In this document: positions 9,209 to 50,747 of the stretch, one piece after another
Position numbering within the stretch: the first letter of the stretch is position 1
Layout: every line of letters starts with the position of its first letter
Source: Rhodoferax sp.
GTDB lineage: Bacteria; Pseudomonadota; Gammaproteobacteria; Burkholderiales; Burkholderiaceae_C
Length of the DNA: 64,000 bases
Reading direction: 5' to 3'
Assembly (NCBI GenBank): GCA_031431035.1
Contig: JANPCR010000182.1
Coordinates: 7,675-71,674 of the forward strand
Made by a program: the position numbers and the translations under genes
Notes under the pieces: generated by a model
Databases searched by the model: none
What the model saw: only the letters and a program-made list of their open reading frames with translations
Told to the model about the DNA's origin: nothing

Positions 9209-9330
9209 CTAAATGCTACTAAATATATAGCAAACTATGCATATTATTTGAGAGCTAGAGGCCTAAAACACTCACAAAACGGGCCAAAATTGACTTTTAG
9301 GTCAAAAAAGAACCTGCAGGTTCTTTTTCT
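9209..9330 (-). repeat. AT-rich modular repeat, copy A
   Basis: Hairpin AAAAAGAACCTGCAGGTTCTTTTT (9304-9328). GAGAGCTAGAGGC at 9250-9262, ATAGCAAACTAT at 9227-9238 and ATGCTAC at 9213-9219, all read on the plus strand. Confidence 0.9.
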
Positions 9331-11171: not shown

Positions 11172-12446
11172 CTACAAGGGCCGCACGGCGCTCGGGTCGG
11201 GCCGTTGCAGCCACGCCGCAAATTCGTCCGCCAACTGCTGGCTGGCCCGGGCGGCGGTTGTCCAGGCCTTCACGCGGCCTGCCAGGTCGTTGCCATAGCG
11301 GGTGAAATCGCCGCGATCCGGCAGTTTTCCGTTGGGCAGCGTGCGCACCCAGTCAGGGTTGGGGGCCAAGAGCAGCACATTGTCCAGGTGGTGAGTGGCT
11401 TTGTGCCGCCATTTCAGGCCTTTGTCCAACCAACCGGGCACCACGGCTTTTTGAAAATGTGGGTAGAGAACCAGAGGCGCAGAAGTCACATTTTTTGAAA
11501 GTGATATCACCGGTGATGTGACTTTTGACTCAGAGGCAGCTTCGGGCTCATTTAATGAGTCTTTTAGGCCTCTAGCTCTCGAAGAATGGCCATTGTTTGC
11601 TATAATATTAGTAGCATTTGGCTGAGATGCCAATTGTCCAGGCGCTCGGCCTGCGGGGCCGACGTTCGCGTAGTTCAAATGCAAGTGGTAATCGGTGATT
11701 CCGCCATCCCAATACGCCCCAGGCGGCGCGCCCGGAATGTTGCGCACCGACTGCAATACGAACGGAATCGAACAGCTGGCCTGCAGCGCTTGCATGAAAT
11801 TGGCATCGGTCAGGGGCACTTGGCGGGTGGCAAAATCAGCCGTGCCAAAGGGCAAAGGGGCCGATTGGCTGGAAAAAACCACCCGCTCCAGCCACGCGCC
11901 CAGCGCTTTGCGGTGCAATCCATTCGCTAAAAACGCGCCCAAATAGCCCAGTGGCGTGCGCAGGCGCTGCTCCCGCGCCAGCAGATGCCGCCCGCGCGAG
12001 GTGATGACGTGCAGGCGATACCTTGGGTTGTGCAAGACCTCAAACACGCGGCCGCCGTAAAAATCTTCCAGGCTGGCACCAAACTTTTCGCTGACAAACT
12101 GGGCCGAAACCCGCTTTTGACCGGGCAGCAGCTCGTAATGCTGGTGAATGTAATCGTGCTCCAGCCGCTCAAAAGCTTGCACGTTGGTCGACTGCCCGGG
12201 GGGATTTCCATGGCCCAAACAGGCCGTCGCCATGCGCCACGCCCCAATGGACGCGCCCACCAGATTTACCACATGGGTCGATGGCGCCAGAAATTCTCCA
12301 AAAATCAGCCGGTCCAGCGGCCCCAAAATTAATCCCTTGGGGCCACCCGCCGCCCCAGCCAGGGTACCAATGTCAGCCGCTTGAAGGCCTCGGTTTTGAA
12401 TATGGCGAAGCGCTGTGGGCCCCGCGTACAGGCAAAGTGCTTGCAC
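11172..12446 (-). CDS. patatin-like phospholipase family protein (carries an in-frame repeat insertion)
   Basis: GASIGAW (GxSxG) nucleophile elbow and WDGGITDY (DG) motif. GTG start. Residues SQPNATNII...SKNVTS are encoded by repeat copy B read antisense. Confidence 0.8.
11485..11622 (+). repeat. AT-rich modular repeat, copy B (inside the patatin CDS)
   Basis: Hairpin around ATCACCGGTGAT (11485-11522). Box1 GCCTCTAGCTCTC at 11568-11580. Degenerate box2 ATTGTTTGCTAT at 11592-11603. Box3 GTAGCAT at 11611-11617. Confidence 0.85.
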
Positions 12447-28212: not shown

Positions 28213-28340
28213 AAAAAAGAACCTGCAGGTTCTTTTTTCTCAAAAAGGCCCTGAAAATGCCATTTTATGAATGAAATAGGCCTCTAGCTCTCGGAAAATA
28301 TATATAGTTTGCTATTTATATTATAGCAATTAAATTTCTG
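28213..28340 (+). repeat. AT-rich modular repeat, copy C
   Basis: Hairpin AAAAAAGAACCTGCAGGTTCTTTTTT at 28213-28238. Box1 at 28280-28292. Box2/box3 ATAGTTTGCTATTTATATTATAGCAA at 28304-28329. Confidence 0.9.
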
Positions 28341-38696: not shown

Positions 38697-38867
38697 GTCA
38701 TGAGTCCTAAGGAAAAAGTAAGTGGGAGAAAAAGTGAGAGAGTAGGCGAAGAACTGCGCAAGCCTAACGGAACTTGTGCAGTGCAACAACAGGGCTTGCC
38801 CTAGCCGCTATCACCCAAGTGACTTGCGGACTGACTGCGCTGCCCACTCGCTGTCATTGGGCGCGAC

Positions 38868-40499
38868 TCAAACACCAGGTAGTTTGTAATCCTTCAAGGA
38901 CTCACGCAGCTTCATTTTTTGCATTTTCCCTGTGGCGCCTAAGGGAATGGCATCGACAAACACCACGTCGTCGGGGATTTGAAACTTGGCCGTTTTGCCT
39001 TCGAAAAATTGCAGTATTTCAGCGCGCGACACCTCAGCCCCTGGCTTTTTAACGACCGCAATGATGGGGCGCTCGTCCCACTTGGGGTGCTTCATGCCAA
39101 TGCAGGCGGCCATGGCCACAGCGGGGTGCGCCATGGCAATGTTTTCAACATCGATGGAGCTGATCCACTCGCCACCCGACTTGATCACGTCTTTGCTTCG
39201 GTCGGTGATCTGCAAATAGCCATCTTCGTCAATCGTGCCGACGTCACCCGTCGGGAACCAACCGCCTGCCACCAGGGGCGAGCCGCCCTCTTGCTTGAAG
39301 TATTGATCGATGATCCACGGCCCTTTGACCAGCAAATCGCCAGAGGTTTTGCCGTCCCACGGCAGTTCGGTGCCATCGGGGTCGACGATTTTCATGTCCA
39401 CGCCAAAGACCGCCCTGCCCTGTTTCAGCCGAACTTTCATTTTGTCGGCGGCGTCCATTGGCAAATGCTTGTTTTTGAGCGTGCACACCGTGCCTAGCGG
39501 CGACATTTCGGTCATGCCCCAGGCGTGCAACACTTCAACACCATAGTCGTCGTTGAACGCAGAAATCATGGCCGGTGGGCACGCCGAGCCGCCAATCACC
39601 GTGCGTTTCAGGGTTGAAAAGCGCAAACCGCCCGCCTGCATGTGGCCCAGCATCATTTGCCAAACTGTCGGCACACCAGCCGCAAAGCTGACTTTTTCGC
39701 CTTCAATCAATTCAAAAATCGACTTGCCGTCCATCGCAGGGCCTGGGAACACCAGTTTGGCCCCGGTCATGGCTGCTGAATACGGCAGACCCCAGGCGTT
39801 GACGTGAAACATCGGCACGACCGGCAAAATGCAGTCGCGTGCGCTCATGCTCAAGGCGTCTGGTAACGCCCCAGCCAAGGCGTGCAGCATGGTGGAGCGG
39901 TGGCTGTACAGCGCAGCTTTGGGGTTGCCCGTGGTGCCGCTGGTGTAGCACATGCTGGACGCCGAATTTTCATCAAAGGTGGGCCAGGTGTAGGTAGCAG
40001 GCTGTTTGCCCATCCAGGCTTCGTAACTCATCAAGCCGGGTATGCCGGTGTCAGCAGGCAGTTTGTCGGCATCGCACAGCGCAATGTAGTGTTTGATGGT
40101 GGTGCAGCGGCTGAAAATGGCTTTGACAATTGGCAAAAAGCTCATGTCAAAACACAGCACCGAGTCTTCGGCGTGGTTGGCAATCCACACCACTTGGTCG
40201 GGGTGCAAACGCGGGTTCAGGGTGTGCAACACACGGCCCGAGCCGCTCACGCCAAAGTAAAGCTCCAAGTGGCGGTAGCCGTTCCAGGCCAAGGTGGCGA
40301 CCCGGCTGCCAAATTGCAATTGCATGGCGTCCAGCGCATTGGCCACCTGACGCGAGCGCGAGGCGACTTGTCTGTAGGTGTAGCGATGAATATCGCCCTC
40401 AACCCGGCGCGAGACGATTTCGCCCTCGCCGTGGTGGCGATCTGCGTGCTCGATCAAACTTGAGATGAGTAACTGTTGACTCTGCATTAACCCCAGCAT
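38868..40499 (-). CDS. long/medium-chain fatty-acid--CoA ligase (AMP-binding)
   Basis: YTSGTTGNPKA AMP-binding motif. GGAGC RBS upstream of ATG 40499. Confidence 0.9.
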   Translation of the reverse strand: MLGLMQSQQLLISSLIEHADRHHGEGEIVSRRVEGDIHRYTYRQVASRSRQVANALDAMQLQFGSRVATLAWNGYRHLELYFGVSGSGRVLHTLNPRLHPDQVVWIANHAEDSVLCFDMSFLPIVKAIFSRCTTIKHYIALCDADKLPADTGIPGLMSYEAWMGKQPATYTWPTFDENSASSMCYTSGTTGNPKAALYSHRSTMLHALAGALPDALSMSARDCILPVVPMFHVNAWGLPYSAAMTGAKLVFPGPAMDGKSIFELIEGEKVSFAAGVPTVWQMMLGHMQAGGLRFSTLKRTVIGGSACPPAMISAFNDDYGVEVLHAWGMTEMSPLGTVCTLKNKHLPMDAADKMKVRLKQGRAVFGVDMKIVDPDGTELPWDGKTSGDLLVKGPWIIDQYFKQEGGSPLVAGGWFPTGDVGTIDEDGYLQITDRSKDVIKSGGEWISSIDVENIAMAHPAVAMAACIGMKHPKWDERPIIAVVKKPGAEVSRAEILQFFEGKTAKFQIPDDVVFVDAIPLGATGKMQKMKLRESLKDYKLPGV

Positions 40500-42258: not shown

Positions 42259-42380
42259 AAATTTACTACAATTGTGGTAAATTTGGGTCAAAATCGGCAT
42301 TTTTTTCAAATATATGAACAAAAAGTGCCTCTAGCTCTCTGATTTATTCAATAGTTTGCTATTATTTTAATAGTAAATTG
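42259..42380 (+). repeat. AT-rich modular repeat, copy D
   Basis: Hairpin AAATTTACTACAATTGTGGTAAATTT at 42259-42284. Box1 at 42327-42339. Box2/box3 ATAGTTTGCTATTATTTTAATAGTAA at 42351-42376. Confidence 0.88.
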
Positions 42381-46128: not shown

Positions 46129-46163
46129 AAAAGGCCCGAATTCGTTGAGAATTCGGGCCTTTT
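46129..46163 (+). terminator. rho-independent terminator downstream of the PPIase gene
   Basis: 11-bp stem GGCCCGAATTC / GAATTCGGGCC, loop GTTGA, then TTTT. Confidence 0.8.
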
Positions 46164-46165
46164 CA

Positions 46166-46277
46166 TTTGCTATTATTAGCATAGCAAACTATTGATATAA
46201 TTCGAGAGCTAGAGGCACTTTTTATTCATATTTTGGGTTTTTGGAGCGATTTTTAGAAAAAAAGAACCTGCAGGTTC
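46166..46277 (-). repeat. AT-rich modular repeat, copy E
   Basis: On the plus strand: TTTGCTATTATTAGCATAGCAAACTAT at 46166-46192, GAGAGCTAGAGGC at 46204-46216, hairpin GAACCTGCAGGTTC at 46264-46277. Confidence 0.88.
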
Positions 46278-49209: not shown

Positions 49210-50607
49210 ATGACTGATTTCAACTCGCTTCCCCTGTCTCCCGCCACACTGGACAACCTCAAACAGCTCGGTTACCTGGAGATGACGCCCATCCAAGCTG
49301 CTGCCCTGCCCCCCGCCCTGCTGGGCAAAGACCTGATCGCCCAGGCCAAAACCGGCAGTGGCAAGACCGCCGCCTTTGCCTTGGCGCTGTTGGCCAACCT
49401 GAACCCACGGCGTTTTGCCGTGCAAGCCATGGTGCTGTGCCCCACGCGCGAACTGGCCGATCAGGTGACGGTGGAGATTCGCCGTTTGGCACGCGCGGCA
49501 GACAACATCAAGGTTGTGACGCTGTGCGGCGGCGTGGCTTTGCGCGGGCAACGCGCCTCGCTGGAGCATGGCGCGCACATTGTGGTGGGCACGCCAGGGC
49601 GCATCATGGACCACCTGCAGCGCGAGTATTTGAACTTGGAGGCATTGGGCACCCTGGTGCTGGACGAAGCCGACCGCATGCTGGACATGGGCTTTTTTGA
49701 CGACATTGCCACCGTGGTCAAGCAAACCCCCAAAGAACGCCAAACCCTGCTGTTTTCGGCGACCTACCCGGAAGGCATCGAAAAACTGGCCAAACAGTTC
49801 ATGCGTGACCCAGTGCAGATCAAGGTAGAGGCGCAGCACACCGAAAGTCTGATCGAACAGCGCTTTTATGAAGTCACCCGCGCCAACCGGTTTGAAGCCG
49901 TGGCCGCCTTGCTGAACCACTTTCGCCCCGTGTCCACCCTGGCCTTTTGCAACACCAAACAGCAGTGCAAAGATTTGATTGTCTATCTGCAAGCGCAAGG
50001 TTTTAGCGCATTGGCCCTGTATGGCGAGCTGGAGCAACGCGAGCGCGACCAGGTGCTGGCGCAGTTTGCCAACCGCAGTTGCTCGGTGCTGGTGGCCACC
50101 GATGTGGCATCGCGCGGGCTGGACATCACCCAGCTAGAGGCGGTGATCAATGTCGATATCACTCCCGATGCCGAGGTTCACGTGCACCGCGTGGGCCGCA
50201 CTGGCCGCGCGGGCGAAAGCGGGCTGGCGCTGTCGTTGGCGTCGATGAACGAAATGGGCTTTGTCGGCAAAATTGAGCAATACCAAAACCGACCGTCGGT
50301 GTGGCACAAGCTGGACGAGCTGACCCCCACTGGCAAAGGCAAACTGCTGCCGCCCATGGTCACACTGCAAATTTTGGGTGGAAGAAAAGAAAAAATCCGC
50401 CCTGGCGACGTGCTGGGCGCGCTCACCGGAGCCGAAGGCGGCACCGCCTACACCCGCGAGCAAATTGGCAAAATTCAAGTCACCGAGTTTTGCACCTTCG
50501 TCGCTGTGGGCCGAGATGTAGCCCATGCCGCCTGCGCCAAGCTGAATGCGGGCAAGGTGAAGGGCAAAAGTGTGCGGGTGCGGATGATGGTGGGGGATGG
50601 GGAGTAG
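49210..50607 (+). CDS. dbpA: ATP-dependent RNA helicase DbpA (DEAD-box)
   Basis: AKTGSGKT, VLDEADRML and SAT motifs plus a C-terminal DbpA-type RNA-binding domain. ATG at 49210 preferred. Confidence 0.88.
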   Translation: MTDFNSLPLSPATLDNLKQLGYLEMTPIQAAALPPALLGKDLIAQAKTGSGKTAAFALALLANLNPRRFAVQAMVLCPTRELADQVTVEIRRLARAADNIKVVTLCGGVALRGQRASLEHGAHIVVGTPGRIMDHLQREYLNLEALGTLVLDEADRMLDMGFFDDIATVVKQTPKERQTLLFSATYPEGIEKLAKQFMRDPVQIKVEAQHTESLIEQRFYEVTRANRFEAVAALLNHFRPVSTLAFCNTKQQCKDLIVYLQAQGFSALALYGELEQRERDQVLAQFANRSCSVLVATDVASRGLDITQLEAVINVDITPDAEVHVHRVGRTGRAGESGLALSLASMNEMGFVGKIEQYQNRPSVWHKLDELTPTGKGKLLPPMVTLQILGGRKEKIRPGDVLGALTGAEGGTAYTREQIGKIQVTEFCTFVAVGRDVAHAACAKLNAGKVKGKSVRVRMMVGDGE

Positions 50608-50621
50608 TCCCTCAAAATTCC

Positions 50622-50747
50622 AAAGTCATATCACCGGTGATATGACTTTTCCCGAAAAACCGCCAAAACGCGATTTTATGAACAAAATAGGCCTCTAGCT
50701 CTCGAGATATATCAATAGTTTGCTATATATAATATAGCAATTCAAAT
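50622..50747 (+). repeat. AT-rich modular repeat, copy F
   Basis: Hairpin AAAGTCATATCACCGGTGATATGACTTT at 50622-50649. Box1 at 50691-50703. Box2/box3 ATAGTTTGCTATATATAATATAGCAA at 50715-50740. Confidence 0.9.

Follow-up and report, generated by a model that had tools for sequence, protein, structure and literature searches.

A perfect 28-nt palindrome (AAAGTCATATCACCGGTGATATGACTTT) at positions 50622-50649 (+ strand) of a 64,000-nt stretch of Rhodoferax sp. DNA (contig JANPCR010000182.1 of assembly GCA_031431035.1; the whole stretch is referred to below as the window) is probably the stem-loop module, exchangeable between copies, of a composite interspersed repeat that is fixed in the chromosome, mosaic in organisation and similar in kind to repetitive extragenic palindromic (REP) sequences and bacterial interspersed mosaic elements (BIMEs). 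Two mechanisms had been put forward in an earlier note on this DNA, selection on base pairing and exchange among copies of the repeat, and both are supported by the data presented here. Over the long term, modules made of a hairpin and its spacer, together with variants of the core, would be exchanged between copies, probably where these have spacer and core sequence in common, by ectopic gene conversion or recombination; such exchange would yield mosaics, would switch the hairpin class of orthologous loci, and would leave lineage-specific variants at almost all shared loci. New in this work are a fourth hairpin class, a test for solo hairpins, the positional conservation of the copies, compensatory stem changes, class switches at orthologous sites, recurrent lineage variants, core-only relatives, and the symmetric phasing of A/T runs.

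Hairpin classes, assortment of modules and orthologous copies

The genome from which the window derives is a metagenome assembly (G000; 4.24 Mb in 342 contigs, 57% GC), in which the core pattern of the repeat was matched 325 times at no more than two mismatches, or about once per 13 kb. The element is about 150 nt long, about 70% AT, mostly single, and present in about 330 copies in the genome; judged by base composition and information content, it extends from about -97 to +52 around the core start, with a sharp right end and a diffuse left end. Among 25 genomes of the genus Rhodoferax, copy number ranged from 0 to about 325 per species, while the core pattern was not found in most of the approximately 250 genomes sampled from the family, and a related family of repeats was found in one other genus. 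The repeat is limited to some Rhodoferax species, with core-only relatives in another genus. Flanking-gene orientation, which was taken from a crude gene caller based on open reading frames (ORFs) and GC content at third codon positions (GC3), was convergent at 106 elements (40%), divergent at 27, and co-directional at 131 (72 and 59 for the two orientations), and all hairpin classes favour gene 3' ends by the same caller. The repeat has a gene-3'-end habit with little orientation preference.

Four hairpin classes were distinguished among the 327 classifiable copies in G000:

P1: centre AACCTGCAGGTT, 160 copies
P2: centre ATATCACCGGTGATAT, 51 copies
P3: centre TACCACAATTGTGGTA (also written TTTACCACAATTGTGGTAAA), 60 copies
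P4: centre ATACCCAATTTGGGTAT, 56 copies

Three unrelated hairpins had been described in the earlier note, and three are indeed present in the window; the genome as a whole adds the fourth, P4. The core lies on one side of the palindrome only, at a centre distance of 44, 54.5 or 65 nt; the distance is 54-55 nt in 65-73% of each class, and the remainder are displaced by one 10-nt step, to about 44 or about 65 nt. A hairpin followed by a T-run at a fixed distance had also been described, and the fixed distance stands (54-56 nt from the palindrome centre to the G that opens GCCTCTAGC in all six window copies), but the T-run is not a general feature, because a T-rich tail is common in P1 (layout A6-stem-T6), partial to rare in P2 (where TTTT follows the stem), and rare in P3 and P4. 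A terminator consensus scan flagged only one hairpin, that of a P1 copy (copy E, below), on both strands.

The proposal that structure is kept while sequence is replaced holds for the outer stems, which are copy-specific yet self-complementary and give perfect palindromes of up to 56 nt; it does not hold for the palindrome centres, which are 98-100% invariant in sequence (for example, P4 stem positions 3-9 are identical in 55-56 of the 56 copies). Stem extensions of at least 8 bp were present in 24 of 60 P3 copies, compared with 1.7% in a control in which left and right flanks of different copies were paired, and stable folds are obtained for all four classes (-12 to -24 kcal/mol). Furthermore, A or T runs at least three bases long are repeated about every 9.8 nt in a layout symmetric around the palindrome; relative to its centre they lie at -10, -19.5, -29.5 and -40 to the left and at +10.5, +19.5, +29.5, +38 and +49.5 to the right, with spectral power maximal at a period of 10 (0.22 versus 0.02-0.05 off peak). 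Helical phasing of A/T runs on both sides is meaningful for double-stranded DNA, in terms of curvature or wrapping, and not for RNA.

The palindromes essentially never occur without the rest of the element. Of 313 exact palindrome matches in the genome, which formed the test set for solo hairpins, 290 have an intact core next to them on the expected side, 13 adjoin a core that is degenerate, 6 are split from their core by an IS30-family insertion, 3 are at a contig end, and only 1 is a chance match inside GC-rich sequence. With 312 of 313 palindromes lying by a core, a broken core or a contig end, and with only four classes that have near-invariant centres, the suggestion that a core element targets pre-existing palindromic terminators is refuted.

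Hairpin class is linked weakly, if at all, to variants in other parts of the element. The mutual information between hairpin class and any core column is no more than 0.05 bit; for the box1 variants (AAAATnG in 226 copies, AAAAAGnGCC in 20, and GTTTTAGG in 7) the test against class gave p=0.21, and for the box3 A/G variant at column 43 the association is at most weak (p=0.045). The box2 haplotype GAATATATTCAA was found with P1, P2, P3 and P4 in 14, 2, 3 and 4 copies, and the haplotype GAATAATGGTCA in 3, 1, 2 and 0 copies, respectively, while one box2 haplotype is modestly skewed to a single class, P2 (overall p=0.007). The shuffling of modules that had been read from the window is borne out in the larger set of 327 copies, where box2 haplotypes are spread over the hairpin classes, and by class differences at orthologous sites of a distant species (below).

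Element flanks from 739 kb of a close species (G017), 88-95% identical to their counterparts, were mapped onto G000. All 36 mappable sites are occupied in G000, 35 by an intact copy and 1 by a degenerate one, and hairpin class is the same at 35 of 35 orthologous sites. Mismatch between the G017 and G000 orthologs differed among the segments of the element:

TAGTTTGCTAT: 0.05
ATAGCA: 0.09
GCCTCTAGCTCTC: 0.105
box2 (variable): 0.19
box1 (variable): 0.21
box3 loop (variable): 0.26

Core segments have thus changed at a rate 2-4 times lower than that of the variable segments interleaved with them. The variable segments are far more alike in orthologs than in paralogs, which indicates that the copies have been inherited in place and have not moved since the split of G000 and G017. 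In the outer stems, 18 compensatory double differences and 49 one-sided differences were counted between these orthologs, whereas a rough estimate under independent mutation gives about 2-3 double stem changes. This excess of compensatory changes indicates that pairing has been preserved at each site, through selection or through templated correction inside the palindrome, and together with the self-complementary outer stems it supports the proposed selection on secondary structure.

A more distant species (G001; flanks 72-88% identical to those in G000) provided 22 elements with both flanks mapped, of which 17 correspond to an intact core in G000, 3 to a degenerate copy, and 2 to an empty site. 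No shared site had the opposite orientation (20 of 20 are the same), and given the little orientation preference within the genome this argues that the sites descend from a common ancestor. Nevertheless, 5 of the 17 intact sites differ in hairpin class (P2 to P3 twice, P4 to P1, P2 to P4, and P1 to P3), and a sixth difference was found at a degenerate copy. At 14 of the 17 shared loci, core column 9 has C in G001 but T in G000; at 15 of the 17, core column 14 has T in G001 but A in G000. In the same manner, all seven shared P1 sites have the outer-stem form of G001 (TTAAC/GTTAA in six of them), while the partners in G000 have GAACC/GGTTC in five of seven, and the difference between these two stems is itself compensatory. 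Since the same substitutions are found at many loci, they are not the product of independent mutation; they call for exchange among copies (concerted evolution) or for adaptation of all copies to a changed preference of a factor. Tandem double hairpins of different class were found in five G000 copies, 31-52 nt apart and with the distal hairpin always P2, and one JANOTO-assembly copy has P3'+P1' at a site with P1 alone in G000; such doubles are plausible intermediates of class switching and may arise in the course of the exchange proposed here.

The core and the hairpin are separable. In two genomes of another genus (G103 and G281), the family consists of box1 and the core GCCTCTAGCCCCCGTCAAATGGTCATAGTTTGCTAT, without a class palindrome and without the A/T-tract spacer, and its box2 resembles the rare G000 haplotype GAATAATGGTCA. 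Within the genus, the palindromes are lacking in G022, and variant forms of P1, P3 and P4 are present in G021 and G003. At three sites (copy B of the window, C178 and C23) the element is composite in G000 and is a core-only, GC-richer copy in other lineages.

Site F, the other window copies and mobile elements at the repeat

The palindrome at 50622-50649 belongs to copy F, the last of six copies in the window, and begins 15 nt after the TAG stop (50605-50607) of a gene on the + strand. The predicted RNA fold of its hairpin is -13.2 kcal/mol (z -4.6). Copy F consists of the following parts:

50622-50649, + strand: hairpin module of class P2, AAAGTCATATCACCGGTGATATGACTTT, centre 55 nt from the core
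50650-50677, + strand: spacer with phased A/T tracts, TCCCGAAAAACCGCCAAAACGCGATTTT
50678-50690, + strand: box1, ATGAACAAAATAG, insertion point of the IS30-family element in other copies
50691-50703, + strand: conserved core segment, GCCTCTAGCTCTC
50704-50715, + strand: box2, variable and AT-rich, GAGATATATCAA, which completes a predicted IHF consensus match, TATCAATAGTTTG
50716-50740, + strand: box3, TAGTTTGCTAT-N7-ATAGCAA, a second small inverted repeat and the right end of the element

The other five copies are placed as follows:

Copy A, 9213-9328, - strand: class P1; palindrome 9305-9328, core segment 9250-9262, box3 9213-9237
Copy B, 11504-11617, + strand: variant of class P2; palindrome centre 11504-11519, core segment 11568-11580
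Copy C, 28213-28329, + strand: class P1; 26-nt perfect palindrome AAAAAAGAACCTGCAGGTTCTTTTTT at 28213-28238, core segment 28280-28292
Copy D, 42259-42376, + strand: class P3; palindrome 42259-42284, core segment 42327-42339
Copy E, 46167-46277, - strand: class P1; palindrome 46264-46277, core segment 46204-46216, box3 46167-46191

All of the palindromes quoted in the earlier note were found where it had placed them: GAACCTGCAGGTTC at 9310, 28219 and 46264, the stem of copy F at 50625 with a relative at 11501 that differs by two mismatches, and AAATTTACTACAATTGTGGTAAATTT at 42259. None of the three was reproduced in shuffles of the window. The groupings of segments that it had listed are literally present as well, in that copies A and B share GTTTTAGG in box1 and the GTAGCA form of box3, and copies D and E share AAAAAGTGCC. 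When the six copies are aligned, the right-hand part common to them reads ATGAAyAAAATAG, GCCTCTAGCTCTC, 12 variable AT-rich nucleotides, and TAGTTTGCTAT-N7-ATAGCAA.

Copy B lies in frame and free of stops within a patatin-like phospholipase gene (11172-12446, - strand); at the same codon position many members of the genus have a shorter core-only remnant, and G015 and G003 have nothing there. Directly past the box3 end of copy E is a canonical GC-rich terminator hairpin (AAAAGGCCCGAATTC...GAATTCGGGCCTTTT, 46129-46163), and at this site a resident terminator and an element palindrome therefore coexist. In the G017 ortholog of site F (C64, about 38865-39677), an extra insert of about 750 nt separates the upstream gene from the hairpin; it has small ORFs on the opposite strand and may be a cassette of toxin-antitoxin type. 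The only inverted element with two cores (C83:15200-15447) has a single central P4 palindrome between them and is kept in the G017 ortholog.

An IS30-family element is inserted in at least 18 copies of the repeat, each time breaking the assembly at G000 contig ends (C42, C43, C44, C55, C74, C113, C174, C176, C177, C189-C191, C214, C216, C225, C267, C276 and C295). The C-terminus of its transposase (...NHRPRKCLGYRTPHEVF) scored 86.6 bits against NF033563, its terminal repeat is GTTGCACTTCGTACTGGAATCCAAG, and it always enters at one point of box1 (ATATGAAy/AAAATAGG, with the slash at the point of insertion), in both orientations. In practical terms, the repeat and the IS30-family element break the assemblies of these metagenome-derived genomes and mark a subclade of Rhodoferax. 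Three genes of the Y1_Tnp type (IS200-like or RAYT-like, the latter standing for REP-associated tyrosine transposase), 208-239 aa in length, were found on C245, C87 and C21. Two of them that look intact (C245 and C87) are bordered by inverted copies of GGGGTCAGRTCT and not by the repeat studied here; the copy on C245 looks frameshifted ahead of a DnaA-C-like helix-turn-helix.

Weighing the explanations

The function of the repeat would be that of a gene-3'-end module which the host tolerates or uses, in the manner of REP sequences and BIMEs. Together with its phased A/T arms, the palindrome would make a curved site, either protein-wrapping or prone to cruciform formation, P1 and P2 would also act as a bidirectional transcription stop, and the core would bind a putative factor with a lineage-dependent preference. 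A bolder version, possible but on the unlikely side, takes the palindrome and its phased arms to be a selectable DNA-topology module, a candidate site for capture of gyrase or another wrapping protein at converging ends of transcription units, which would have been grafted onto an older core repeat in one Rhodoferax clade and kept uniform over about 330 loci by exchange between copies. If so, four interchangeable 'strong sites' would be evolving in concert with the host protein that reads them. In E. coli, the gyrase motif is a symmetric 130-bp pattern centred on the cleavage site; its flanks have a periodicity of 10.75 bp, and it is over-represented both downstream of transcribed operons and within BIME-2/REP elements (PMC6379681). 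The Rhodoferax element is like it in symmetry, arm length and position at gene 3' ends.

However, several observations weigh against an exchangeable, host-used module of this kind. The period of the Rhodoferax element is about 9.8 nt, as opposed to 10.75 bp in the gyrase motif. The near-invariant centre sequence is not explained by pairing alone, and a single binding factor for four unrelated palindromes is hard to picture. Gene conversion normally needs homology on two sides, and the left side of the element offers only low-complexity A/T tracts. P3 and P4 rarely have a T-rich tail, which makes an intrinsic-terminator role shared by all classes doubtful. A predicted IHF site was tried as a defining feature and rejected, as the consensus is exact in only 48 of 327 copies (15%) and within one mismatch in 132. 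It should also be noted that the low mismatch of the core segments between G017 and G000 comes from copies that were chosen by core similarity, so that core divergence is biased slightly downward, and that the variable columns are saturated between G001 and G000 (mismatch of 0.41 in orthologs versus 0.43 in non-orthologs), so that orthology between these two species rests on position and orientation and not on similarity.

Among the alternatives, it is unlikely that the class switches came about because a second hairpin was gained in tandem and the first was then lost, by unequal recombination or by slippage in 10-nt A/T units and without gene conversion. The five two-hairpin copies of G000, the P3'+P1' copy of the JANOTO assembly opposite a G000 site with P1 only, and spacing steps of about 10 nt that are compatible with slippage all speak for such a route, but it leaves unexplained why core substitutions recur at orthologous loci and, unless this is another copy, what the source of the second hairpin is, and the distal hairpin is always P2. 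Quite unlikely is the view that four subfamilies were spread by transposition from four master copies and that the mosaic is recurrent mutation at a few A/T-only sites, with no exchange at all. Class differs at 5 of 17 orthologous sites between G001 and G000 while orientation is kept at 20 of 20, haplotypes that span several sites, AATGGTC among them, are found with three of the four hairpin classes, identical lineage-specific substitutions are found at nearly every orthologous locus, and no copy has moved between G000 and G017; against these results stand the variable columns, which mostly toggle between A and T and are near saturation, and the weak tie of one box2 haplotype to P2 (p=0.007).

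It is very unlikely that the copies are small RNA genes, in which a promoter in box3 and box2 directs transcription toward the hairpin as a terminator and any stable stem serves. Free replacement of the terminator stem would be expected in such a gene, a TTGCTA read in reverse lies 17 nt upstream of a conserved TAT, and some copies have an extended -10-like TGnTATAAT. Nevertheless, the correctly spaced hexamer, TATnnA (columns 21-26), is without the final T, a scan for sigma-70-type promoters found no consistent site, P3 and P4 are mostly without T-tails, copy B is translated inside a gene, and the 10-nt phasing on either side of the palindrome has no RNA meaning. Rfam gave no match at gathering score in the window, and a permissive search with copy F returned only chance-level hits (E of at least 0.45). 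A REP family, or one of the REP doublets known as REPINs (REP doublets forming hairpins), mobilised by a RAYT is highly improbable. The element is a high-copy extragenic palindrome and G000 has three Y1_Tnp genes, but these are bordered by the GGGGTCAGRTCT inverted repeat and by none of the four palindromes; Y1_Tnp is present in 23 of 25 genomes of the genus irrespective of the element and was not found in G012, which has 160 copies. Moreover, the genome has a single inverted doublet, there is no GTAG-type head, and the palindromes are perfect. That the hairpins are resident gene terminators with a mobile core inserted beside them is scarcely credible, even though elements are mostly at gene 3' ends and P1 resembles a bidirectional terminator: only four classes with near-invariant centres exist, the solo-hairpin test left one palindrome in 313 on its own, the centre-to-core distances are fixed, and core-only lineages are without class palindromes at those sites.

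Comparison with known systems

Several known types of repeat were considered and set aside. A miniature inverted-repeat transposable element (MITE) was rejected, because there is no conserved left terminus, there are no end-to-end inverted repeats, and there is no polymorphism between close species (G000 has an element at 36 of 36 G017 sites and lacks one at only 2 of 22 G001 sites); no clean empty site for a target-site duplication was found. The only repeat found to be described for Rhodoferax in the literature searched is the Beta-proteobacterial repeat element (BRE) of Bordetella, which is about 90 bp long, about 69% GC and often tandem (PMC3110155), and it was rejected on that description, as the Rhodoferax element is about 70% AT and single. 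An integron attC array was rejected as well: attC sites are similar in that structure is conserved while sequence varies, but the Rhodoferax elements are dispersed in both orientations and not in cassette arrays, they have no R''/R' core sites, and their palindrome centres are conserved in sequence.

Other systems share single features with the repeat. Rickettsia palindromic elements (RPEs) resemble it in that copy B is old and lies in frame within a protein-coding gene; this is the only such case seen in the Rhodoferax family, which is otherwise intergenic. Bidirectional intrinsic terminators are matched by the A6-stem-T6 layout of P1, by P2 with its following TTTT, by the stable folds, and by the 40% of elements between convergent genes, but P3 and P4 are mostly without T-tails, stems are AT-rich, and identity of the centre is not needed for termination. 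The BOX elements of Streptococcus pneumoniae are modular, with conserved ends, variable middle units and stem-loop potential. The Rhodoferax element is modular as well, with 3-5 A/T units that give the distances of 44, 54.5 or 65 nt; it has no sequence relation to BOX, whose modules are not swapped between unrelated palindromes and which is considered mobile.

The closest likeness is to the BIME/REP sequences of E. coli, and it is one of organisation only, without sequence homology. Both families have hundreds of extragenic copies, mostly at gene 3' ends, and in both, types of palindromic unit are combined with conserved motifs (here the spacer, box1, core and box3). They differ in that the Rhodoferax palindromes are perfect, fall into four unrelated classes and have no GTAG head, and in that each Rhodoferax element has one palindrome, in place of alternating Y and Z units, with a 60-nt one-sided core and with no RAYT link found. 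Repeats of the REP/BIME type are usually interpreted either as selfish mobile DNA or as belonging to the host, and the two cases are difficult to distinguish. The Rhodoferax family shows unusually clear signs of maintenance in place, with fixed positions, a slow core, compensatory stems and recurrent lineage substitutions, and meanwhile its central palindrome, which is set at an exact and helically phased distance from the core, is exchanged among four unrelated sequences. The family is thus a possible natural system for the concerted evolution of dispersed non-coding elements without transposition, and for asking what reads a palindrome in curved DNA at the ends of genes.

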